Virus record (IMG/VR): IMGVR_UViG_2823679482_000007
Location: 2,113 to 66,112 of that record
Direction: 5' to 3' (one strand)
DNA length: 64,000 nt
From: a virus
Lineage: Duplodnaviria; Caudoviricetes
Within the stretch, counting starts at the first letter, position 1, and each line of letters opens with the position of its first letter. Below are positions 5,151 to 64,000 of this stretch, in pieces. The position numbers were made by a program, and so were the translations under genes. The notes below the pieces were generated by a model, which did no database searches, was not told where the DNA came from, and worked only from the letters and a program-made list of their open reading frames with translations.

Positions 5151-6482
5151 TTAGGCATACGCAACCGGCAACTCGCCGACCTGCGTCGTGTAGCGCGGCG
5201 TGCGCATCTCGAACTTGGTCGTCCAGGCCCGCCGCTGCTGTGCGAGCCCGGCCCGCGCCGGCACCACGCTGCCGCGGCCGAAGCGAGCGTTGCATGCGTC
5301 CATCGCGTCCATGAGCCGGCCGGCCCGCTCGCGGTCGAGCCGGCCGATCAGCGCGCGTTGCGACGCCGCCAGCGGCACGAGGTCGACCGTCACGACGCCG
5401 GCCTTCGAGTAGCGCCAGGGCGGGCTGCCCTGCTCGCGCCAGGTGCGGGCCACGCCGTGCAGCGCCGCCGGGATCAGCGCCAGCGTGTCGTTGGTCGCCT
5501 CCGGCAGCGTCACCACCGTGGAGACCGAGCGCATCGGCTCGCCGCGATCGTGCTCGGTCGTATGATAGAAAACGGTGATGTGGTCGGTACCAAGGCCTTC
5601 GCGCCGCAGCTTCTCGCCGAGCCGCGTCGCGTGGGCGGCAACCGCCTGCTCCAATTCGGCGCGCTCCGTCACCCGGCCGGAGAAAGAGCGCGTCACGGCG
5701 CAGCCCTTGCGGCGGGCCGGCACGAGCTCAAGCCCCAGGCAGGATACGCCGCGCAGCTCGTGAATCATGCGCTCACCCACCACGGTCAGCGCCTTGCGTA
5801 CCGGTCGCGGATCGATGTCGCGCAGGTCTGCCACCGTGTCGATGCCCATGGCCTCCAGCTTCGGCAGCGAGGCACGGCCAACGCCCCATAGCTCGCCGAC
5901 GTGGATCCGGCAGAGCCAGTGCTCGTAGGCCGTCGGGTCGGTCAGGTCGCAGACGCCTTCAAGCTCCGGCACCGTCTTAGCGATGTGGTTGGCGAGCTTG
6001 GCGAGCGTCTTGGTCGGGCCGATGCCGACGCAGGTCGGGATGCCGGTCCAGGCTCGCACCGTGGCGCGGATGTCCCTGGCGAGCGCGACGCGGTCGCGGC
6101 GCACGAAGGCGGTCAGGTCCAGGAAGCTCTCGTCGATCGAGTAGATTTCCACGTCAGGCGTGGCGTCACGGTAGATCGCGTTGATGCGCGCCGACATGTC
6201 CCCGTAGAGGGTGTAGTTCGACGAGAACACGCGCACGCCTTGGCGCTCGCAGAGCCCGCGGATCTTGAAGTAGGGGTCGCCCATCTTGATCCCGAGCGCC
6301 TTGGCCTCAGGGGTGCGGGCGATCGCGCAGCCGTCGTTATTCGAGAGCACGATCACTGGCACGCGGGCGAGCTTGGCGTCGAACACGCGCTCGCACGAGC
6401 AGTAGAAGCTGTTGCCGTCGATCAACGCCAGGGCGCGACCGCCGCCGATCCGGTCGCGTTGGCGCGCCTCGGCGTTGCTCAT
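5151..6482 (-). CDS. umuC: Y-family error-prone DNA polymerase (Pol V catalytic subunit-like)
   Basis: [45 protein letters not shown]-terminal ..RTPRYTT. Confidence 0.95.
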
Positions 6483-6946
6483 CGGCCTTGGCCCGCGCGG
6501 GAGACGTGCCAGCGGACCGTGAAGCGCACCACGCCCCAGACATCGACTTCCGCCAGCTCCTGCAGCCCGTAGACGGGGAGGTCCGCGTTGTCGAAGGCGA
6601 GGCGCGCCGTGTTGCCCTCGACCACCATGCGCTTGATCGACATCTCGCCGTCGACCGCCGCCACGACGACGCTGCCGTGCGCAGATTTGAGGCTGCGATC
6701 GACGCAGGCGAGATCTCCGTCGAAGATCCCGGCATCCCGCATCGAATCGCCGGCGATACGCCAGAGGAAGGTGGCCGGCGGGTTCGGCACCAGCCAGCGC
6801 GGCAGCTCAAGCGCGCCTTCCAGGAAGTCGTCTGCAGGGGAGGGGAAGCCTGCGCAGAGCGCTTGGCCCATCAGCGGCACACGAACTGTGGAAAAACCCT
6901 CCTGCGGTAGCTCTGCGACCGTGTGCAGCCTCAACCGAGCCCCCAT
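6479..6946 (-). CDS. umuD: UmuD-like S24 peptidase
   Basis: [12 protein letters not shown] cleavage region, GDSM (Ser) and SIKR (Lys); 4-bp overlap with umuC. Confidence 0.93.
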
Positions 6947-6954
6947 CTGAGTTA

Positions 6955-6969
6955 GAACAGAGAGAGAAC
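6955..6969. promoter_or_regulatory. Alphaproteobacterial LexA (SOS) box
   Basis: GAAC-agagaga-GAAC, a perfect GAAC-N7-GAAC; 9 bp upstream of umuD and in the divergent intergenic region. Confidence 0.9.
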
Positions 6970-7058: not shown

Positions 7059-7325
7059 ATGACGATGTCGCAGGAGCGCTGCCACTTCCACTGCACGGAC
7101 GGCCTGGATGTCGTCTTCGATCTGCAAGGCCGAGCGGTCGCCGAGGAGGATCTGCGCCCGGTCTGCGCGAGCGTGGCGGCCGAGGTGATGCAGGGTTGTG
7201 CCGCCCCGGTCGACTGGTCAGCCTGGATCGTCGACGTGCACGACGCCCATGGTCAGCACGTGATGACGTTCGGCTTCGACGAGATTGCGAACGAGGTGGG
7301 CGTGCTAGCGGCATTGGCCGCCTGA
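7059..7325 (+). CDS. DUF6894-like small protein
   Basis: CHFHCTDG...DLQG...W.VDVHDAHGQHV pattern. Confidence 0.7.
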   Translation: MTMSQERCHFHCTDGLDVVFDLQGRAVAEEDLRPVCASVAAEVMQGCAAPVDWSAWIVDVHDAHGQHVMTFGFDEIANEVGVLAALAA

Positions 7326-7334
7326 GGAGAACAC

Positions 7335-7589
7335 ATGGCCATGAAAACGACCTTCCTCGTGCAAACCTTCGTGCTCAAGCGGAAGCGGCTTGTCCCCGGA
7401 GACCGGCAGGTTTCGACGACGAGCAGTGCAGCGCTGAAACGGGCCGAGGCCATGGCCGCCCGCATGCCGGGCACGGCCGCCTTGCAGATCGTAGCCGACG
7501 ACGAAACGGGTGAACTGGAGAGCGCGACGATCCTCGGGCAATTCGGTGAGGTGCCGGACGATTTCGCCGAGAGCTTGCAGGCGGCCTGA
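7335..7589 (+). CDS. Small hypothetical protein, paralog of 56150-56404
   Basis: SD gaggag; shares VQTFV, A..AEA, G(T/S)AA and FG.VP with 56150-56404. Confidence 0.75.
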   Translation: MAMKTTFLVQTFVLKRKRLVPGDRQVSTTSSAALKRAEAMAARMPGTAALQIVADDETGELESATILGQFGEVPDDFAESLQAA

Positions 7590-7591
7590 CC

Positions 7592-7804
7592 ATGCGCACC
7601 ATCGTCGAACTCGACAACGGCAGCGCCGCGGCGATCAGCGACGGCGGCAAGGATCTGGCCGACCTGCTGGCCCGCGCGCTCATGACGGGAAGCGATGCGG
7701 CTTGGGACAAGCTGCGACCCTACGGGATCAGCCGAATCGTCAAGCGTCACCCGACCAAGCATGCGAAGATCGTCGTCGGAGGACGCGAGATCGCAGTCCG
7801 GTAG
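7592..7804 (+). CDS. Hypothetical protein (70 aa)
   Basis: Follows 7335-7589 closely; its first about 15 codons recur as a remnant at 11485-11535. Confidence 0.6.
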   Translation: MRTIVELDNGSAAAISDGGKDLADLLARALMTGSDAAWDKLRPYGISRIVKRHPTKHAKIVVGGREIAVR

Positions 7805-7808
7805 GCCG

Positions 7809-8075
7809 ATGGCGGGGACCACCGAACGATCCGCCGCCGAGATCCGCGGCTTACTCCGGTTCGAGCAGGGTCCCGGTCTGGACGAGGCGGCAGTGCGTGA
7901 GATCTACGAAGCCGTCGGGGAGCAGGTTGCGGAGGCCGGCGTCGGCGACGACGACCGCACGGCCGAGCTGCAGAAGCCGATGCTCGCGGCGGCTAAATCC
8001 AGTCCGCTAAGTTTTGCCAACTGGCCCAGCCAAGGCGAATTCAAGGCGCGGCAGATCTTGCGACTTATCGTATGA
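7809..8075 (+). CDS. Hypothetical protein, C-terminus probably replaced at the GC drop near 7990
   Basis: MAGTTERSAAEIRGLLRF...; abrupt composition change. Confidence 0.5.
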   Translation: MAGTTERSAAEIRGLLRFEQGPGLDEAAVREIYEAVGEQVAEAGVGDDDRTAELQKPMLAAAKSSPLSFANWPSQGEFKARQILRLIV

Positions 8076-17982: not shown

Positions 17983-18638
17983 TAGGCGGCCTTTCCGGTG
18001 AGGGTGGCGGCGAGCCGCGCGAAGAAGCCGGGCTTGGAGGAGGCGGGAGAGCTCACCGCAGTCGGGATCACCGAATGCCCGGCCGCGCGCAGGGCATCGA
18101 CCATGGAGCCGCACTCGCCCGCGATCAGCTCGTCCTTGTCCGTACCGTTGATGATGCGACGGGCGCCAACGGGCTCGTACCGGCCGCCGCCGAAGTAATC
18201 CGCCAGCTTCTTGCCGGTGAACCAGCCCTCGACCATGCCGTAGAAGAGGATGGCGGCCGCCACGTCGAGGCGCATGGCGAGCTTCGGCGTCTTCACCATG
18301 TCCTCGTTGGCCCGCAGGTAGCCGAGTTGCCGGAGTCGCTGGGTCGCCTTGGCGTAGTTCTCCTCCCACGTGAGCTGCACGAAGCCGCGTCCCCAGAAGC
18401 CGGTTGAGCCGTAGGCGCGCCCCTTCCCGCGGCCGTATTCCTCGATCGGCTGCATAGTGCGTGCCGTCTCGTGGAAAGTGGTGGCCAGCGCGTAGCCGAG
18501 CGACGTGGTGCCAAGCAGCGATGGGGCGGCGTCCAAGATCGCATCCATACCGGCAACCTGAGAAGCCTTCAGCCGCCCGCCGAATAGGGATGCGCGCACG
18601 GCCGCATAGAAGGCGGCGCGGTTCAGGCTCGCGGCCAT
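17982..18638 (-). CDS. Endolysin, GH19 (lysozyme-like) family
   Basis: YALATTFHETA..M.PIEEYG, FWGRGFVQLTWEENY, ARRIING. Confidence 0.88.
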   Translation of the reverse strand: MAASLNRAAFYAAVRASLFGGRLKASQVAGMDAILDAAPSLLGTTSLGYALATTFHETARTMQPIEEYGRGKGRAYGSTGFWGRGFVQLTWEENYAKATQRLRQLGYLRANEDMVKTPKLAMRLDVAAAILFYGMVEGWFTGKKLADYFGGGRYEPVGARRIINGTDKDELIAGECGSMVDALRAAGHSVIPTAVSSPASSKPGFFARLAATLTGKAA

Positions 18639-48296: not shown

Positions 48297-48760
48297 CAGG
48301 TTCCGGCTGTGATTCCCTTACCGGCCTTCGCCGGCCATTTCCGGCGCCGATGCGGCAGGCCGGAGGAACGGGCGATTTCCGATCGGCGCTCCGAGTAGCT
48401 CGGTGCCACCATGGGATAGTCTGCCGGCAAGCCGTAGCGGGCACGGTAGCTGTCGGGATCGAACCCATGCCGACGAAGGTGCCGCTTCAGCATCATGTAC
48501 GGCGCGCCGTCGATGAACGAGATCAATCCCTCGGGCGAAATCGATCGCCTGATTTGTGTAGCCGTTGGCCCCTGATCCTTCGGCGCCGCATGAGCTTCCG
48601 GTTCCGCCTTCAATCCAGCCAGCGCCGAGTATGTCCCCTGAATAAGTCCAGGCAAATCGGCCGCACCCAACGTATGGTTTCGCACGTAGGCCGAAGCAAC
48701 CATGATCGTTAGATCGATAGGCGTAGTCGAAATAACGAACGAATATGAGTTTCTAATCAA
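48296..48760 (-). CDS. mucR: MucR/Ros-family nucleoid-associated regulator (Cys-less finger)
   Basis: IMVASAYVRNH..AADLPGLI..Y.AL, IRRSISPEGLISFIDG.PY..LKRHL, YRARYGLPADYPMVAPSYSERRSEIA. Confidence 0.92.
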   Translation of the reverse strand: MIRNSYSFVISTTPIDLTIMVASAYVRNHTLGAADLPGLIQGTYSALAGLKAEPEAHAAPKDQGPTATQIRRSISPEGLISFIDGAPYMMLKRHLRRHGFDPDSYRARYGLPADYPMVAPSYSERRSEIARSSGLPHRRRKWPAKAGKGITAGT

Positions 48761-51248: not shown

Positions 51249-51857
51249 CTACTCCGCAGCCAGCAGCATCGGCGCGGGCTCGGCCGGCGTCGGATCGAAC
51301 TTGGTCGCTTGGTTGCCGAAGGTGTCCCAGCCCGGCCGGGAGGCACGAGCGAACACCTCCAGGAAAGGGCCGGGGATCCGAGCCTCGATTTCCTCGTGCA
51401 GGTTCGGCGGCTTGCGGGAGTGCTCTCGCCGCGGCGTCATCCAGACGCCGGAGAACGGGTTGCCCTTGATGCTGTGCGGACGCCCAGCCTTGAGGATCAC
51501 CACGTATTCGGCGTTCCCCATGACCTCGAAGCCGGTGCCGCGGGCGACCGACGAGGCATAGACGAACAGTCCCGGCTCCGTTGGCCAGAGCTTGATCCAG
51601 GGGATGGCCGACGAGTAGCGGAGCCGCCACGCACGGGCGATCTCGGGGATGCGGTGCAGGAGCGGCGCGGTGATCCAGAGGAACACGCGCCCGCCCTCGG
51701 GGCGCAGCAGGTCGCGCATCGGCAGCGCCTTCACCTCGGCGAGCGTCATGCGGTCGTAGTGCTGCGGGCGGCTCTTGGTGCCGCCAGAGAAACGCCACGG
51801 CGGATCGATGACGACCGCCTCGTAATGGCGCTGTGGGAGGCCGACGAAGGGGCTCAT
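51249..51857 (-). CDS. MT-A70 family adenine methyltransferase
   Basis: IDPPW, FLWIT, REHSRKP, LEVFAR..RPGWDTFGNQ. Confidence 0.92.
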   Translation of the reverse strand: MSPFVGLPQRHYEAVVIDPPWRFSGGTKSRPQHYDRMTLAEVKALPMRDLLRPEGGRVFLWITAPLLHRIPEIARAWRLRYSSAIPWIKLWPTEPGLFVYASSVARGTGFEVMGNAEYVVILKAGRPHSIKGNPFSGVWMTPRREHSRKPPNLHEEIEARIPGPFLEVFARASRPGWDTFGNQATKFDPTPAEPAPMLLAAE

Positions 51858-52210
51858 GCCGCGAGCCTCCGCGCCTGCGGGCGGACGATGCGCCACTGCT
51901 CCAGCACTGCGATCGGCTCATCCCGGCTGCGGGTCAGCACGCAGGGGATGCCGAGGCGCTCGCAGCGCTCCCGGAAGGTGGCCTGCACATCGCTGTCGAC
52001 GCCGCGCGTAGTCTTCAGTTCGATGAAGCCGACGCGGACGAGGCCGCCCAGCACCAGGAGGTCGGAGAGGCCAGCGGTCAGGCCGGCTTGCCCGAGGGCG
52101 CCCGCGTTCGGGATCGCGGCGACGAGCGTGTCCGGCAGGCCGAGCGCCTCCCAATGCTCGATAACGGCGGCCTGGATGGCGGACTCGCGGATGACGGGGC
52201 GGCGGGCCAT
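51854..52210 (-). CDS. VRR-NUC domain nuclease
   Basis: ESAIQ..., AGLSDLLVL, FIELKT..G..S..Q..F. Confidence 0.8.
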   Translation of the reverse strand: MARRPVIRESAIQAAVIEHWEALGLPDTLVAAIPNAGALGQAGLTAGLSDLLVLGGLVRVGFIELKTTRGVDSDVQATFRERCERLGIPCVLTRSRDEPIAVLEQWRIVRPQARRLAA

Positions 52211-52213
52211 GGT

Positions 52214-52735
52214 TCAGCGCCGCGCCGCGATCGCGTCTTCGATATCGGTCTGCCGCGGGATCTGGATCGACATGCGCATGCCATCCCGCTCGAAGGACGC
52301 GACCGTGCCCTTCTTCCTCTCTGCATCCGTCACCGGGACCGGCGTGCCGAGCGCCTGCACTGCCTTACGCATCGACGGAGCGGACGCAGCACGGCGGGCA
52401 ACGGCATCCACCCTGCCGCGGCCGAAATCGCGCTCAGCAGCAGCGCGCCCGAGCGGCGTGTCCGCCAGCATGCCGAGCGCCTGCATGTAGAGTTCGAGGA
52501 TCGCCTCCTCTTCCATGCGCTCGTCGTAATCGCGCTTGCGCATGGCGATGATCTTGCGAATGACCTTCGTGTCGAAGCCGTTCGCCTTGGCTTCCGCGTA
52601 GACGTCCTTCACGTCGCCCGCGATACCGGCCTTCTCTTCTTCGAGCCGTTCAATACGCTCGATGATGGTTTTCAGTTGATCCGCAGCAACCGAGGACGGA
52701 TCGACTTGCGGGGCGGGCGCACCTCTGGCATTCAT
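52214..52735 (-). CDS. GapR-like (DUF2312/UPF0335) nucleoid protein with a C-terminal extension
   Basis: [45 protein letters not shown]. Confidence 0.92.
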
Positions 52736-52805
52736 TTGGCTCACCTTTGAATCGGCTGTGACACCGCCCGGCACCCGCTCCCCAGCAGGCCGGGCGGTTC
52801 GCGTT

Positions 52806-53114
52806 TCAGGGGGTCTGCGGGTAGCCGCTCGACCGGTACGGGCCGGGCCGGTCATCGACGACGCGACCGCGGAAGACGCCGGGGCCGTCAGGGGCCGGAA
52901 GGTCCGTGGACGGTAGATCCGTCGCCGCACCGGCCCGCAGGCGCTCCTCGGCCTGCGTCAGCCCGATCAGCGCGTACCGCCGGCAGTTCACGAGGCTCCT
53001 CGCCGCCGGAGTTGCATGGTCCCGCAGCAGGTCGTTCCGACGCACGATCTCGGTGCGCACGGTGTCGATCAGGTCGGCGAGGCCGGCATCGGTCAGGTCG
53101 GCGAGGGCGCTCAT
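52806..53114 (-). CDS. Hypothetical protein
   Basis: Operon position; SALADL/AGLADL repeat. Confidence 0.55.
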
Positions 53115-55069: not shown

Positions 55070-55327
55070 TCAGGCGGCGACCTCGGGCTGAGGAGTAGGC
55101 GCCGGGCGCTGCACCTCCGCAGGCCAGACCGCATCCGGGGGCCAATTGTCGGAGAACCACTGCAAGGTTCTCGCAAGGCGCTTCACGCCGATATCGCACT
55201 CGCCGGACCGGAGTTCGGCGAGGCGAGAACTGTCCTGGAGGGCCCGCTTCGAGACCGTAGTCTGAGGCACGCCGCAGGCCGCGCCGTAGGCGTCAGCTAT
55301 CGCCAGAAGTGAGGAGATGCCCGTCAT
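55070..55327 (-). CDS. cro: Cro-like repressor
   Basis: Divergent from cI; TTVSKRALQDSSRLAELRSG...LQWFSDNWP.DA.WP. Confidence 0.8.
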   Translation of the reverse strand: MTGISSLLAIADAYGAACGVPQTTVSKRALQDSSRLAELRSGECDIGVKRLARTLQWFSDNWPPDAVWPAEVQRPAPTPQPEVAA

Positions 55328-55339
55328 GGGCCAAGAGGT

Positions 55340-55413
55340 AGGGTATAAATACCCCATCGGTCAAGGGGAGACATACCCCTCTCCACCGGCCATAGCGGGG
55401 GTAATAGTACCCC
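55340..55413. promoter_or_regulatory. Right operator: three 16-bp sites GGGGTA-N4-TACCCC
   Basis: 55340 AGGGTATAAATACCCC; 55364 AGGGGAGACATACCCC; 55398 GGGGTAATAGTACCCC (perfect). TTGACC on the minus strand at 55364-55359. Confidence 0.82.
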
Positions 55414-55415
55414 GC

Positions 55416-56153
55416 ATGGAACGCCCCTTCGTCCACCGCATCCGAGAACGGCTTGAGGCGACCGGCAAATCGGTTCGCAAGGCGGCCCTTGATGCTGGTC
55501 TGAGCGAAACCGCGCTGAAGGATCTGCTCGCCAACGAGAAGCAGTGGCCGAAGCTCGACACGCTTCAGAAGCTCGCCGTCTCTCTCGAGACCGATCCGGC
55601 TTGGCTGGCGTTTGGCGGTGATGACGTGGTCGAAGAGGCGAGGGCCGCCAGCGCGGCGATGCCGCCGGCCTCCCTTCCGGTCGTGGGAGAAGTGGCGGCA
55701 GGCCGCTGGCTTGAGGCCGATGATCATGTGGACGTGCCGCCCTACGATCCGGTCCCGGTCCAGCCGGACGCGCGATGGCCTGTTGAGGCTCAGTACGGCC
55801 TGATGGTGCGCGGCACCTCGCTCAACCGCGTAGCCCTAGATGGCGACATCCTCGCCTGCGTAGACGCGATCGCGGCGCGCTATCGTCCTCGGGAAGATGA
55901 CCTCGTGATCGTCGAGATGCGCCGGAACGCAGGCCTGCTGCGGCAGATGACGGCCAAGCGCTATATGCGGCTCAGCACGCATATCGAGCTGTGGCCCGAT
56001 TCGGATGATCCGCGCTGGCAGACCCCCATCATCATCCCGCATCCTGAAGACGGCTTGTCCTCGGCCGTCGAAGACGAGGACGGCCGGATCGAGGTGAGGA
56101 TCAAGGCTATGGTGACGTGGATTCACCGACCGATGCAGCGCCGCGGGCGCTAG
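55416..56153 (+). CDS. cI: CI-type repressor (HTH plus S24 autopeptidase)
   Basis: HTH SVRKAALDAGLSETALKDL..PKLDTLQKLA; VAAG cleavage site, GTSL (Ser), TAKR (Lys). Confidence 0.93.
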   Translation: MERPFVHRIRERLEATGKSVRKAALDAGLSETALKDLLANEKQWPKLDTLQKLAVSLETDPAWLAFGGDDVVEEARAASAAMPPASLPVVGEVAAGRWLEADDHVDVPPYDPVPVQPDARWPVEAQYGLMVRGTSLNRVALDGDILACVDAIAARYRPREDDLVIVEMRRNAGLLRQMTAKRYMRLSTHIELWPDSDDPRWQTPIIIPHPEDGLSSAVEDEDGRIEVRIKAMVTWIHRPMQRRGR

Positions 56154-56404
56154 AACGGTAGCTGATCCGACACCCCCGGCGGCACGGCCCCAAACACCGC
56201 GAAGGTGATTGCCTCGCCTTCGTCGAACTCACCGCCGCCGCGCCGCAGGAAGGCCGCCGACCCGGCCGCATAGCCCTGCTCTACCCGGGCTTCCGCATAC
56301 CGCCGCGCCTCGTCGGCATCCTTGCACTGCGTGAACCGCCCCTGGGCCAGCTTGCCCTTTCCATCTCGAACGAAGGTCTGCACGCCGTAAAGATCGCTCG
56401 CCAT
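56150..56404 (-). CDS. LexA-boxed small protein convergent on cI; paralog of 7335-7589
   Basis: MASDLYGVQTFVRDG...FGAVPP; its stop overlaps the cI stop (CTAG 56150-56153). Confidence 0.75.
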   Translation of the reverse strand: MASDLYGVQTFVRDGKGKLAQGRFTQCKDADEARRYAEARVEQGYAAGSAAFLRRGGGEFDEGEAITFAVFGAVPPGVSDQLPF

Positions 56405-56452
56405 GAGTCGGTGGGTTCCTGATGGGGTAGCCCTATCGGAGTGTGGACGAGA

Positions 56453-56467
56453 GAACATTGCAAGAAC
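56453..56467. promoter_or_regulatory. Alphaproteobacterial LexA box
   Basis: GAAC-attgcaa-GAAC, perfect; 49 bp upstream of ATG 56404 on the minus strand. Confidence 0.88.
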
Positions 56468-56516
56468 AGAAGTCAGTGGCCTGTGGACGAATGTGGAAGG
56501 ATTTGCGCCCCACTTC

Positions 56517-56569
56517 GGGGTAAATATCCTCCAGCGGTCTTGACGGGGTAAAAATACCCGATCTATGAT
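56517..56569 (+). promoter_or_regulatory. PL-like promoter with two operator sites
   Basis: GGGGTAAATATCCTCC (56517) and GGGGTAAAAATACCCG (56545); TTGACG-18nt-TATGAT. Confidence 0.78.
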
Positions 56570-56587
56570 CCTTCATCGCCCCCAGCG

Positions 56588-57891
56588 ATGGAGCCTCTGG
56601 TGCCCCACCCCGCCGATTACTGGATCGACCGCCTCGACGGCGCCTTCGCCATCTTCTCTGCCTCTGGCACCGAGCTTGAGGGCATCGAGAGCCGCGGCGA
56701 CGCGCAGAACCACGTCCTCGACCTTATCGAGCGCGACCGCGTCGCGGCCCAGGAGGAGCGCGCCGCGCAGGACGACTTCGAGGCCCAGCAGTTCGCCGAG
56801 GCCGCGTGATGATCGCGTTCCTCAACTCCCTCCCGCCGCTCCAGGCTGTCGCGGTCCTGGCCTTCGGGCCCGGCACCTGCGCCGTCGGCCTCGCCTTCTG
56901 CCTGTACGAGGCCGGCCGTTTGGTCCGCCTCGCGATCACAGGGCGGCTGTGATGGCGGCTCCGACCCATCCCGATCCCTGCGGCGCCCGCTGCGAGACGG
57001 CCGACGCGCTGCGCGCCCTGCGCAACCTGCTCGAAGCCGCTGCGAACGAGGCCGCCCGCATCCGCGCAGGCGCCGCCCTCGGCAACGCCGACCGCTTTCA
57101 GGTCATCGAGGCTGTCGATCTCGGCCGCGATGCGCTGGCGCTCGCCGGCATCCTCGGCGCCGTGCCGGCCGCGGCGACCGACGCCGATCCCTCCCTCACC
57201 ACCGATTCCCGCGAGGCAGCATGAGCGCGCTCTCGAATGTCGTCTGGGTGGTCGTCTTCGCCCTGCCGCTGATCGTCATCGGCATCGGGGCTCACATGGC
57301 CGGCGCCGACCGCCGCCCCCACCGGAAGGGCCGTGGCCGTGGCTGAGCGCATCCCCTACCGCCTCACCGTCGAGCGCACCGACGACGGCCCGCGCCTCGT
57401 CGCGATCGGACCCGACGGCGAGCGCGCCGCCGAGTTCGATATGGACCGGGAAGGCGCCCGCACAATCGCTGGCGCCCTGCTCGCCGCGACCGGCGACGCC
57501 TTCGAGCGGACCCTCACGACGGAGGCCGCCCGTGGTTGAGCGCACCCCCGAGCAGCAGGCGTTCGCCGACCTGTTCCTGTCCCTCGGCGTTCGCCTCCCG
57601 CTGCGTGTCGGCGGGTTGCTCGGCCGCGAGATCCGTGACGCCGACGGGCACACGCTCCTGATCGTCGTGCCGACCCGCAGCCAGTCCGACGACCGCGCCA
57701 GAGCGCTCGCGATCGTGAGTGCTGCGAACGCCGGCACCGGCACGCCCGACCACGAGGCCGCCCCGCTCCCGGTGCTGCGCCCTCTCACGGCCGACGTGAT
57801 CCGGGCCGCGTCCGACCCCTTCGACCCCGAACACCTGATCGCCGTGGCGCGAGCCGCCCGGATCGCCCGTCGCACGAATGCCGCGGAGTGA
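56588..57891 (+). other. Run of six small coupled early genes (56588-56809, 56809-56952, 56952-57224, 57221-57346, about 57340-57539, about 57532-57891), two of them membrane peptides
   Basis: Stop/start overlaps, GC3-rich, C-terminal AA/AAE typical of these phage genes. Confidence 0.65.
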
Positions 57892-58619
57892 CCCCCATGG
57901 AGATGATCGACAAGGCCGGGATGCGGCCGACCGTGCGCATCCATCACGACCTCTATCAGGGCACAGAGGAGTGGCTCGCCGCCCGCTGCGGTATGCTCAC
58001 CGCCAGCGAGATGGGGCTGATCATCACCCCCACGACGTTCAAGGCCGCAAAGAACGAGAAGGAGCGCGCACACCTTTACGAGCTGCTCGCCCAGCGCATC
58101 AGCGGCTACGTCGAGCCGCACTTCGTCAGCTTCGACATGATGCGCGGCCACGAAGACGAGATCGAGGCGCTCGCCCTCTACGCGAAGCACTTCGCCCCGA
58201 CCGAGGCCGTCGGCTTCGTCACCAACGACAAATGGGGCTTCACCATCGGCTATTCGCCCGACGCCTTCGTCGGCGCCGACGGCCTGGTCGAGACCAAATC
58301 CCGCCGGCAGAAGTACCAGATCGAGACCTTCGTCGTTCACGTCCTCGCGGAGACGATCCCCGCCGATTACGTGATCCAGATCCAGACCGGGCTCCTCGTC
58401 AGCGAGCGGTCGTGGTGTGACCTGATCTCGTATTCGGGCGGACTGCCGCTGGCCCGCATCCGCGCGTACCCCGACCCGAAGATCCAATCCGCGATCGTCG
58501 AGGCGGCCGAGGGGTTCGAGACCCGGCTGGAAGAGGCCCGCGCCAAGTACCTCGAAGCCATCGAGAAGGCGGGCAACATCCCGACCGTGCGCCGCGTCGA
58601 GGGGGAGATCCTCGCGTGA
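57888..58619 (+). CDS. YqaJ/lambda-exonuclease family nuclease
   Basis: QGTEEWLAARCG.LTASE, MMRGHE.E, GYSPDAFVG..GLVETKS, QIQTGL. Confidence 0.9.
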   Translation: MTPMEMIDKAGMRPTVRIHHDLYQGTEEWLAARCGMLTASEMGLIITPTTFKAAKNEKERAHLYELLAQRISGYVEPHFVSFDMMRGHEDEIEALALYAKHFAPTEAVGFVTNDKWGFTIGYSPDAFVGADGLVETKSRRQKYQIETFVVHVLAETIPADYVIQIQTGLLVSERSWCDLISYSGGLPLARIRAYPDPKIQSAIVEAAEGFETRLEEARAKYLEAIEKAGNIPTVRRVEGEILA

Positions 58620-62537: not shown

Positions 62538-62835
62538 CGCTCGCACCTCGGCTCCGGCCCAGGAGCCATCCTGCCTGTATCCCGATGAGGCTGAACTCGC
62601 GCGCGTCGTGCTCGGCCCGAAGCGCGCGAAGGCGTGGGGCGGTCTCGCCGCCGTCCTCGAGCGCAGCGGCCTGCCGAAGGTCGACCCGATGATGGGCGGT
62701 CGCTACTGGCCCGCCGTCCGAGAATTTCTGGACCGCTACCACCATACCGGCGACCATGCCTCCACCCGGCACCAGGGCCGGAGGGAGGAGGGTGTCCATG
62801 CCAGCGGAGCACGAGTTGCACGCGCCCGGTCTTAA
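62530..62835 (+). CDS. Putative excisionase (RDF)
   Basis: GLPKVDPMMGGRYWPAV..FLD winged-helix-like; overlaps the integrase start. Confidence 0.6.
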   Translation: MGSARTSAPAQEPSCLYPDEAELARVVLGPKRAKAWGGLAAVLERSGLPKVDPMMGGRYWPAVREFLDRYHHTGDHASTRHQGRREEGVHASGARVARARS

Positions 62836-64000
62836 GCGGATGAAGCGCCACAACGGGCGCGTCGATCTCTATTGGGTGGCCGACGAGAAGCTCGCCGCCA
62901 AAGGGTTTACGCCGAAGACGGTTCGCCTATTCGGGGAGTGGCCATCGCAGGAGATCGCCTCGCGCTGCGCGATCCTCCAGGCCGAGATGCTGGAATGGGC
63001 CGCCGGCCGCGAGCCAGGTCGCAACGCATTCGCGCTCGGCACCATCGGGTGGATCTGCCGCGCCTTCGAGACTGACGCCGATTCGCCCATCCACGAGCGT
63101 CGTCGCGACACCCGCGTCTTCTACGGCAAATATATCCGCCACCTGGTCGAAGCCGCCGGCGACGAGCACATGGCCGACATCATCGGCCGCGATGTGCGCC
63201 GGTGGCACCGGACTTGGACGGACGAGATAGGCGAGCGCGGCGCCTACGCCTGCATCCAGACGCTCCGCCGCGTCGTGAACTATGGGTGCGAGCTTCGAGA
63301 CCGCGACGCGATCGAATTGGCCACCGTGCTGTCGAAGACGACGTTCCGGCAGCCGCGCGCCCGCAAGCTCAGGCCGAGTCACGAGATGATCGTCGCTCTG
63401 CGCCTCGCCGCCCACGACGCAGGCAGGCCGAGCATCGCGCTCGCCGTGACGCTCCAGTTCGAGCTCGGGCTGCGCCAGAAGGACGTGATCGGCGAATGGG
63501 ATCGGCCCGACGCAGAGGCACGTGCCCGAATCGCCGGCGCCATCACGGACGGCGCCTGGGTCTGGGATTGGGGCCTCGTCTGGAATCACATCGACGGGAC
63601 GATCTTGCGCAAGCCGACGTCGAAGTCGAACGGCAACGAGGTCGCCGAGCACGATCTCAGCCACTACCCCGAACTGCTCGCCGAGCTGCCCCCACGCGGG
63701 GTTGGGCCCCTGGTGCTCGATGAACGCTCCGGTCTCCCTTGGAGGCGTTCGCACTTCAGTCGCACCTTCCGCGAGATCGCTCGGGCCTGCGGCTGGCCCG
63801 ACGGCATCTGGAACATGGATAGCAGGGCAGGGGCGGTCAGCGAAGCCTTCGAAGCAGGCGCTGCACCGGCCGACGTGATGCGGACCGCTACGCACACGCA
63901 GATGTCGACGACGATGCTCTACAACCGGGGATCGGTGGTTCAGTCGGGTCGCGTGGCCGAGCTACGAACGGCGCGGCGGAAGGCGAAGCCTGCAGACTGA
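62798..64000 (+). CDS. int: Prophage tyrosine integrase
   Basis: FELGLRQKD (R), TSKS (K), NMDSRAG (R), THT..TMLY (H, Y); ends at the window edge with TGA. Confidence 0.93.
   Translation: MPAEHELHAPGLKRMKRHNGRVDLYWVADEKLAAKGFTPKTVRLFGEWPSQEIASRCAILQAEMLEWAAGREPGRNAFALGTIGWICRAFETDADSPIHERRRDTRVFYGKYIRHLVEAAGDEHMADIIGRDVRRWHRTWTDEIGERGAYACIQTLRRVVNYGCELRDRDAIELATVLSKTTFRQPRARKLRPSHEMIVALRLAAHDAGRPSIALAVTLQFELGLRQKDVIGEWDRPDAEARARIAGAITDGAWVWDWGLVWNHIDGTILRKPTSKSNGNEVAEHDLSHYPELLAELPPRGVGPLVLDERSGLPWRRSHFSRTFREIARACGWPDGIWNMDSRAGAVSEAFEAGAAPADVMRTATHTQMSTTMLYNRGSVVQSGRVAELRTARRKAKPAD

Follow-up and report, generated by a model that had tools for sequence, protein, structure and literature searches.

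The 64,000-nucleotide (nt) stretch analyzed here, referred to as the window, spans bases 2113 to 66112 of the 66-kb record IMGVR_UViG_2823679482_000007 (Duplodnaviria; Caudoviricetes), which IMG/VR classes as a provirus, and it contains two open reading frames (ORFs) of an unnamed family of small acidic proteins. Copy 1 occupies 7335–7589 on the plus strand and encodes 84 residues, and copy 2 occupies 56150–56404 on the minus strand, stop codon included, with 84 residues counted from the ATG at 56404; a longer start for copy 2 at 56458 is unlikely because its 33 close homologues measure 84–85 residues. Both ORFs, together with the peptides quoted for them in a preliminary description of this DNA, were found at these positions. 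The same description placed the family twice in one phage, which had to be revised: the record carries three copies, with copy 2 phage-borne and copies 1 and 3 chromosomal. Copy 3 (L003, 1333–1581) falls just outside the window, within the 2.1 kb that precede it in the record, and shares 82% identity with copy 1. Copies 1 and 3 end in ...VPDDFAESLQAA, unlike copy 2, which ends in ...SDQLPF. Copy 3 is followed by a 91-residue ORF that was also seen downstream of the family gene in 18 related loci.

The chromosomal locus of copy 1

The left 14–17 kb of the window is host DNA, containing genes for glycosyltransferases, an ABC-2 permease, a Hint-domain protein, and UmuDC, and copy 1, which is situated about 10 kb outside the prophage, is therefore not a phage gene. 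It is the second gene of a micro-operon on the plus strand that begins with a DUF6894 gene (7065–7325, with a start at 7059 or 7065; PF21834, 27.3 bits) and continues past copy 1 with a 70-residue ORF that starts 2 nt beyond the copy 1 stop codon (7592–7804; no match in Pfam, PHROG, or NCBIfam) and probably, judging from the ORF list and the sequence, with an 88-residue ORF (7809–8075). The micro-operon is divergent from umuD (6479–6946; Peptidase_S24, 75 bits) and umuC (5151–6482; IMS, 127 bits, with IMS_C and DUF4113), which together cover 5151–6946 on the minus strand. The stop codon of the DUF6894 gene overlaps the ribosome-binding site of copy 1. DUF6894 genes were found repeatedly 5' of family members on the same strand (27 Methylobacterium loci, L125, and L164), with translational coupling at the window locus, and the DUF6894 protein may be a partner of the family protein. 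RNA libraries that matched 6–7% of the sampled words yielded only contigs of relatives at 90–95% identity; one 323-nt contig from such a library bridges a relative's counterpart of copy 1 and the ORF after it, which is no proof of transcription.

The prophage locus of copy 2

Gene content identifies a P22-like prophage at 17985–64000, comprising endolysin, coat, portal, and large terminase genes, an immunity region, a YqaJ exonuclease, and an integrase. Its left border falls between about 14.4 and 18 kb, and no tRNA was found in the window. Copy 2 belongs to the immunity region, between a gene for a CI-like repressor and the early-left operon, and stands back-to-back with an early-left promoter-like site (TTGACG-18-TATGAT; 56540–56569, plus strand), which is overlapped by an operator-like site at 56546–56559. 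The CI-like repressor (55317–56153, plus strand; HTH_3 and Peptidase_S24; phrog_4) is convergent with copy 2, and the two stop codons overlap in CTAG. Its Peptidase_S24 match scores 25.1 bits against a cut-off of 23.3, and Ala-Gly, Ser, and Lys motifs were recognized by eye, so that the repressor should self-cleave unaided, as far as its sequence indicates. Three further operator-like sites of the form GGGTA-N4-TACCC are located between cI and the divergent Cro-side gene (55341–55412). The motif occurs four times in the window versus 0.44 expected, a count reached in 0 of 100 shuffles, and from their sequence and placement these four sites are probably the CI operators. A crude scan of 56050–56650 found no terminator-like site.

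Homology, extent, and predicted structure of the family

The preliminary description aligned the two ORFs with each other. At the pairwise level this similarity is weak, as BLASTP produced no alignment at E ≤ 100 and the Smith-Waterman score of 44 was equaled by 6 of 2000 shuffles (z 4.3), but homology was established by profile-profile comparison: hhalign of the copy 1 and copy 2 family alignments, each of 21 sequences, returned a probability of 93.5% and an E value of 2.2e-7 over 80 of the 84 columns. The alignment is thus significant in a profile search, one of the two points on which the preliminary description had made its claim depend. Homologues of copy 1 (n = 353) all come from Methylobacterium or Methylorubrum where a source is named, and a search of 1.84 billion representatives with a joint profile detected 454 clusters at E ≤ 1e-3, mostly of 80–88 residues, in which (as in an alignment of 99 sequences) the copy 1 and copy 2 families form a continuum. 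By these profile comparisons, the two ORFs are genuine remote paralogues of an undescribed family of about 80–90 residues.

The family belongs to soil and plant bacteria and is spread through the Rhizobiales. When 301 genomes drawn evenly from this order were searched at E ≤ 1e-5, 55 contained the family, often in several copies and in some cases in up to seven; at class level, only 6 of 301 genomes were positive. All named database entries (Bradyrhizobium, Tardiphaga, Bosea, Devosia, Rhizobium, and others) read "hypothetical protein," and a full-text literature search returned no paper describing the family in the portions of text it covers. Neither copy, nor any of 12 diverse members, matched Pfam (at E ≤ 1 for the copies), PHROG, or NCBIfam, and 127 of 128 representatives were without a Pfam match, the remaining one giving a sub-threshold DUF2188. 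Copy 2 had no match in 50,697 records of isolated phages, and single-protein scans with P0173 and P0154 detected no viral relatives. Matches of copy 1 in plasmid records were confined to chromids and megaplasmids.

Structure prediction, which the preliminary description had also proposed, gave confident AlphaFold2 models for both copies (mean predicted local distance difference test scores of 88.6 for copy 1 and 83.5 for copy 2) with one common topology: two long strands, a helix, two strands, and a short C-terminal helix or tail. The last four residues of the copy 2 model are of low confidence. Conserved positions include VQxF in strand 1, a hairpin Gly, A..R.AE in the helix, GAxAF in strand 3, and FGxVP after strand 4, the last followed by an acidic and hydrophobic tail. 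The family as a whole is acidic (median isoelectric point 4.8–5.3), and the tail is negatively charged. The top Protein Data Bank (PDB) neighbors common to both models are weak, namely T4 Dmd (5hy3_B; Z 4.5 for copy 1 and 5.2 for copy 2) and a subdomain of topoisomerase III (Z 5.0 and 4.6, respectively). No PDB sequence scored below E 0.1 in a profile search, a Foldseek search of the PDB reached at best E 0.4 and assigned no fold, the fold search of BFVD returned only uncharacterized proteins (best E 5.7e-3), and the ESM Atlas contributed only unnamed clusters.

LexA boxes in the record and upstream of homologues

The alphaproteobacterial LexA operator is taken here as GTTC-N7-GTTC, following the definition given in PMC3323433. 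A perfect box, GAACAGAGAGAGAAC, at 6955–6969 is common to umuD and the divergent micro-operon; it is separated by 9 nt from the umuD start and by 366 nt, which include the DUF6894 gene, from the copy 1 ATG downstream. A second perfect box at 56453–56467, reading GTTCTTGCAATGTTC on the gene's strand, lies 49 nt upstream of the copy 2 ATG. A third perfect GAAC-N7-GAAC match at 43732–43746 falls inside an HsdM-like ORF and is probably due to chance, and the total of three in the window is not significant by itself (1.66 expected; 24 of 100 shuffles reach three). The two perfect boxes that had been reported, one near each copy, both exist, although the window holds three and the box of copy 1 is several hundred nucleotides away from it. 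Copy 3 has its own perfect box, GAACGAAAATAGAAC, 120 nt upstream (L003, 1213–1227), so that all three copies in the record have a perfect box upstream.

Enrichment of GAAC-N7-GAAC upstream of homologues, the check proposed in the preliminary description, was borne out in two samples, in each of which a perfect box would be expected by chance in about 1.5% of cases. Among the best 80 of 218 confirmed relatives from Methylobacterium and Methylorubrum, 38 loci carry a perfect box at most 500 nt upstream, all in the GAAC orientation relative to the gene, compared with 14 matches in the 423,643 nt that make up the remainder of the 80 loci (0.017 per 500 nt). The distances fall into two classes, one at −363 to −381 with a DUF6894 gene between and the other at −67 to −153. 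UmuD is the divergent neighbor in 21 of the 80 loci at ≥80% coverage (26 by clustering), and the arrangement of the copy 1 locus, a divergent umuD-type gene with a common operator, is found in these 21 related loci as well.

From the order sample, 30 loci and 58 further regions were examined, one match at a contig start and a region without an ORF match at threshold (L179) having been left out. A perfect box is present within 500 nt of 46 of these 88 family ORFs, against a background of 9 matches in 290,282 nt, and within 150 nt of 36, mostly at −30 to −82. Neighboring genes, limited to those that do not share the upstream region of the family gene, carried a box in their 200-nt upstream region in only 4 of 193 cases (Fisher p 6e-17).

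On a quick tree of the family, the box label requires 11 changes compared with 30 for shuffled labels, none of 500 shuffles was as low, and the box-bearing members form several well-supported clades that are dispersed over the tree. In this tree, copies 1 and 3 group as sister sequences next to box-less Methylobacterium orthologues, and the branch leading to copy 2 is long and unresolved. Relatives of copy 2 were found in seven viral contigs. Six of these align upstream with the window and keep the position of the box (one perfect, five with one mismatch), and the seventh, L186, differs in context, has its perfect box at a distance of 305 nt upstream, and was not aligned. Another, distantly related prophage group of five contigs has the box at −57 or −60 (four perfect, one with one mismatch), so that 11 of 11 viral loci (six plus five) carry a box with at most one mismatch.

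Neighbors of family members elsewhere

A scan of 299 neighboring ORFs in the order sample revealed S24-domain proteins beside the family in 8 of 88 loci, one of them UmuD-like and seven with or near helix-turn-helix (HTH) domains, and S24-protein neighbors are in marked excess. Ku, SRAP, single-stranded DNA-binding protein (SSB), and UvrD were each encountered as single or double cases. Most neighbors are unrelated housekeeping genes, and the family gene is therefore mostly a stand-alone gene.

In the viral contigs, a repressor-sized HTH-type gene, read by eye, converges on the family gene in four of six loci of the first prophage group and four of five of the second. Three of the six loci of the first group (L182, 3262–3531; L183, 3264–3533; L185, 3256–3525) have, after the family gene and before the convergent repressor, a gene for an 89-residue protein with two CxxC pairs, which is absent from the window; this order recalls the dinI-antirepressor order of Gifsy phages. 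Other contexts were observed in the order sample. A Bradyrhizobium-type group (L093, L095, L096, L099, and L101) displays conserved synteny with DUF465 genes, a gene for a GGDEF protein, and purE, and its LexA box, about 300–346 nt upstream, is separated from the family gene by a small unnamed gene, which amounts to another two-gene SOS operon. In L143 (2302–4010), a DarT-Macro (DarTG) pair lies directly 3' of both a family member and a CI-like S24 repressor.

Other features of the prophage

The prophage carries the endolysin gene (17985–18638) at its left, tail and ejection genes, the coat gene (32523–33779), the portal gene (36620–39163), and the large terminase gene (39295–40548); replication and regulation genes, the YqaJ exonuclease gene (57888–58619), and the integrase gene (62756–63997) are also present. 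A gene for an ankyrin-repeat protein (35130–36098) is located between the scaffold and portal genes. The terminase module is separated from the replication module by a segment (41684–43836) that encodes a 307-residue tyrosine recombinase and a truncated HsdM-like methylase fragment and looks like an inserted moron island. The prophage additionally encodes a Ros/MucR regulator (48299–48760), an MT-A70 methyltransferase (51252–51896), and a GapR-like DNA-binding protein (52217–52930), which are homologues of alphaproteobacterial cell-cycle and chromosome factors.

Discussion

The comparative evidence strongly supports a tie between this unnamed family and the SOS response, for the present record and for about half of the family. 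Since a LexA operator lies upstream, the box-bearing genes are predicted to be under LexA repression and inducible by DNA damage. The best explanation of the two ORFs, to which we give an even chance, is that they are remote paralogues in an undescribed SOS-linked family that acts like DinI or ImpC, as a modulator of the axis formed by RecA, SSB, and S24 cleavage. Copy 1 is a host gene in a micro-operon that has one LexA box in common with the divergent umuDC, and copy 2 is a prophage gene predicted to be transcribed from its own LexA-controlled promoter toward cI. By analogy, the family protein may be a small binding modulator of the activated RecA filament (RecA*), of SSB, or of S24 autocleavage, which in the host could tune the processing of UmuD and in the prophage the timing of CI inactivation.

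Several observations weigh against such a role. The box-less loci in the Methylobacterium set (42 of 80) are a recognizable orthologue group, 42 of the 88 members in the order sample lack a perfect box, and one-mismatch boxes are not enriched among box-less members (5 of 52 versus 0.08 per 150 nt). With about half of its members box-less and no such enrichment, this is therefore not purely an SOS family, and the preliminary description, which called it a dedicated DNA-damage family, stands as far as the SOS link is concerned and fails on the word dedicated. At the copy 1 locus, the box 366 nt away could serve umuD only. The family has no sequence match to PF06183 (DinI) or to any other Pfam family, a wide VIA-align search gave a best Z of 5.0–5.2 without assigning a fold, and DinI is not among the Foldseek or VIA-align matches listed, an absence that does not exclude a DinI fold. 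The strand-strand-helix-strand-strand-helix topology of the models also differs from that of DinI. Given that neither a sequence nor a fold match was obtained, the family protein would work like DinI, not be a DinI. Moreover, in the Gifsy prophages, deletion of the dinI homologues had no measurable effect on induction in the experiments described in PMC3121763, and the role of even this analogue is therefore unclear.

The C-terminus of copy 2 raises another explanation, confined to the prophage subfamily, in which D-x-[LIVM]-P-F-COOH would mimic the tip of host SSB, so that a damage-induced protein competes with SSB for its partners or docks on them and thereby changes RecA loading and prophage induction. 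D80, P83, and F84 are invariant in the copy 2 family and L82 nearly so; 24 of 112 diverse representatives of 70–95 residues end in [LIVM]-P-[FYW], usually as D-x-L/I-P-F; the host SSBs end in ...DLDDDIPF, and the SSB encoded beside one family member in ...DSDIPF. The low-confidence end of the copy 2 model is as expected of a free tail, and all 11 members examined in viral contigs combine an SSB-like tail with a LexA box upstream. Nevertheless, the tail is restricted to a subfamily, with copies 1 and 3 ending in ...DDFAESLQAA, position −4 is variable in the family and Asp in SSB, and a resemblance over five residues may be fortuitous, and we judge this mimicry unlikely. An extended version, which we also regard as unlikely, would make the prophage branch an SOS-induced SSB-tip decoy that rivals SSB for repair and recombination proteins, or docks onto these, and so reshapes RecA filament formation and the timing of CI cleavage and prophage induction, with the chromosomal branch beside umuDC gating UmuD processing through the same body; the two branches would then form a hitherto unrecognized class of SOS feedback modulators taking the place of DinI in the Rhizobiales. 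The position of copy 2 next to cI and under a LexA box, an arrangement that recurs in both prophage groups, could alternatively reflect a LexA-controlled antirepressor that binds and inactivates the CI-like repressor, as Tum of phage 186 or GfoA/GftA of Gifsy do, and the LexA-controlled antirepressors described in PMC3121763 are likewise small proteins. A role as a pure antirepressor agrees poorly with the stand-alone chromosomal setting of most family genes, which have no repressor close by, and with the Peptidase_S24 domain of the neighboring CI; the 89-residue CxxC gene in half of the first prophage group could be the antirepressor instead. We consider this role distinctly unlikely. A division-inhibitor role resembling SulA or SidA, which had also been suggested, was set aside, as neither a membrane segment nor any similarity was found.

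The convergence of copy 2 and cI would also allow the transcript, rather than the protein, to act, with SOS-induced antisense transcription running into cI and lowering CI synthesis. The overlapping stops, the lack of a terminator-like site at 56050–56650, and the recurrence of the convergent orientation in related prophage loci are consistent with this effect, but the terminator scan was crude, and the conservation of the copy 2 protein and its confident fold argue that a coding function is under selection; the antisense effect is improbable as the explanation. We hold no greater expectation for an accessory factor of UmuD or polymerase V comparable to DdrR, which the divergent umuD and common box in 21 of the 80 Methylobacterium loci, and also in L122, bring to mind. 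In Acinetobacter, ddrR is divergent from umuDAb, and its product is a corepressor that helps UmuDAb bind DNA, as reported in the account of PMC11332147. Most members outside Methylobacterium, as well as copies 2 and 3, are not beside umuD. The possibilities of an SSB-tail decoy, a CI antirepressor, a DdrR-like partner of UmuD, and an antisense effect are not mutually exclusive. The last alternative questions the SOS link itself: the boxes would serve neighbors such as umuD and the early-left promoter, and the family would be generic and unrelated to DNA damage. The box of copy 1 does adjoin umuD at a distance from copy 1, and half of the family has no box. However, 36 of the 88 members have a perfect box close to their own start in many unrelated contexts, neighbor genes with non-overlapping upstream regions rarely have one (4 of 193), and box-bearing members form several well-supported clades, all of which render an incidental link highly improbable.

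The alphaproteobacterial SOS regulon still contains many damage-induced genes of unknown role, and for the widespread family described here, which is unnamed in databases, LexA control is supported by comparative evidence about as strong as sequence alone allows. Finding its binding partner would make several ideas testable, namely the tuning of the mutagenic polymerase, the reading of the SOS signal by prophages, and the use by phages of the SSB-tail hub.

Comparison with known systems

Among known proteins, DdrR resembles the family by gene arrangement, being a small, lineage-restricted protein whose gene diverges from a umuD-type gene across a common operator; the repressor there is UmuDAb, whereas LexA is presumed here, and the present family is far wider than one genus and mostly not beside umuD. 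Copy 2 is comparable with Tum (186), AntC (N15), and GfoA/GftA (Gifsy), as treated in PMC3121763, in being a prophage gene with its own LexA box placed to couple induction to SOS. The repressors of those phages are not cleaved, whereas the CI encoded here has an S24 domain, and most of the present family is chromosomal. With SSB, the copy 2 subfamily has in common a C-terminus made of an acidic residue, x, and [LIVM]-P-F-COOH; the body of the family is not an oligonucleotide/oligosaccharide-binding (OB) fold, PF00436 gave no match, and the models show a strand-strand-helix-strand-strand order. T4 Dmd is likewise a small strand-strand-helix-strand phage protein that acts by binding another protein, and it aligns with copy 1 over 55 residues (root mean square deviation 2.6) and with copy 2 over 56 (2.4) at 7–9% identity, although Z values near 5 are also reached by commonly occurring arrangements and the family has no toxin neighbor.

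The closest proposed functional parallel is with DinI and ImpC. The impC gene precedes the umuDC-like impAB genes (impCAB). PF06183 was detected in none of 201 sampled genomes of the order, with the Escherichia coli control found, and the niche therefore looks vacant in these bacteria. PMC9926225 describes DinI as an acidic protein, about 80 residues long and controlled by LexA, that binds the groove of the RecA filament alongside LexA, UmuD, and lambda CI, and PMC3121763 depicts Gifsy prophages with LexA-controlled operons that start with a dinI homologue, a DinI homologue also forming half of Tum. The present family is similarly about 80 residues long and acidic with a LexA box upstream, and it is found in the same three niches, as a chromosomal SOS gene, beside umuDC-type operons, and as the first gene of LexA-controlled prophage operons, so that, next to umuDC as well as at the start of prophage SOS operons, it occupies the places that DinI-type genes take in enterobacteria.

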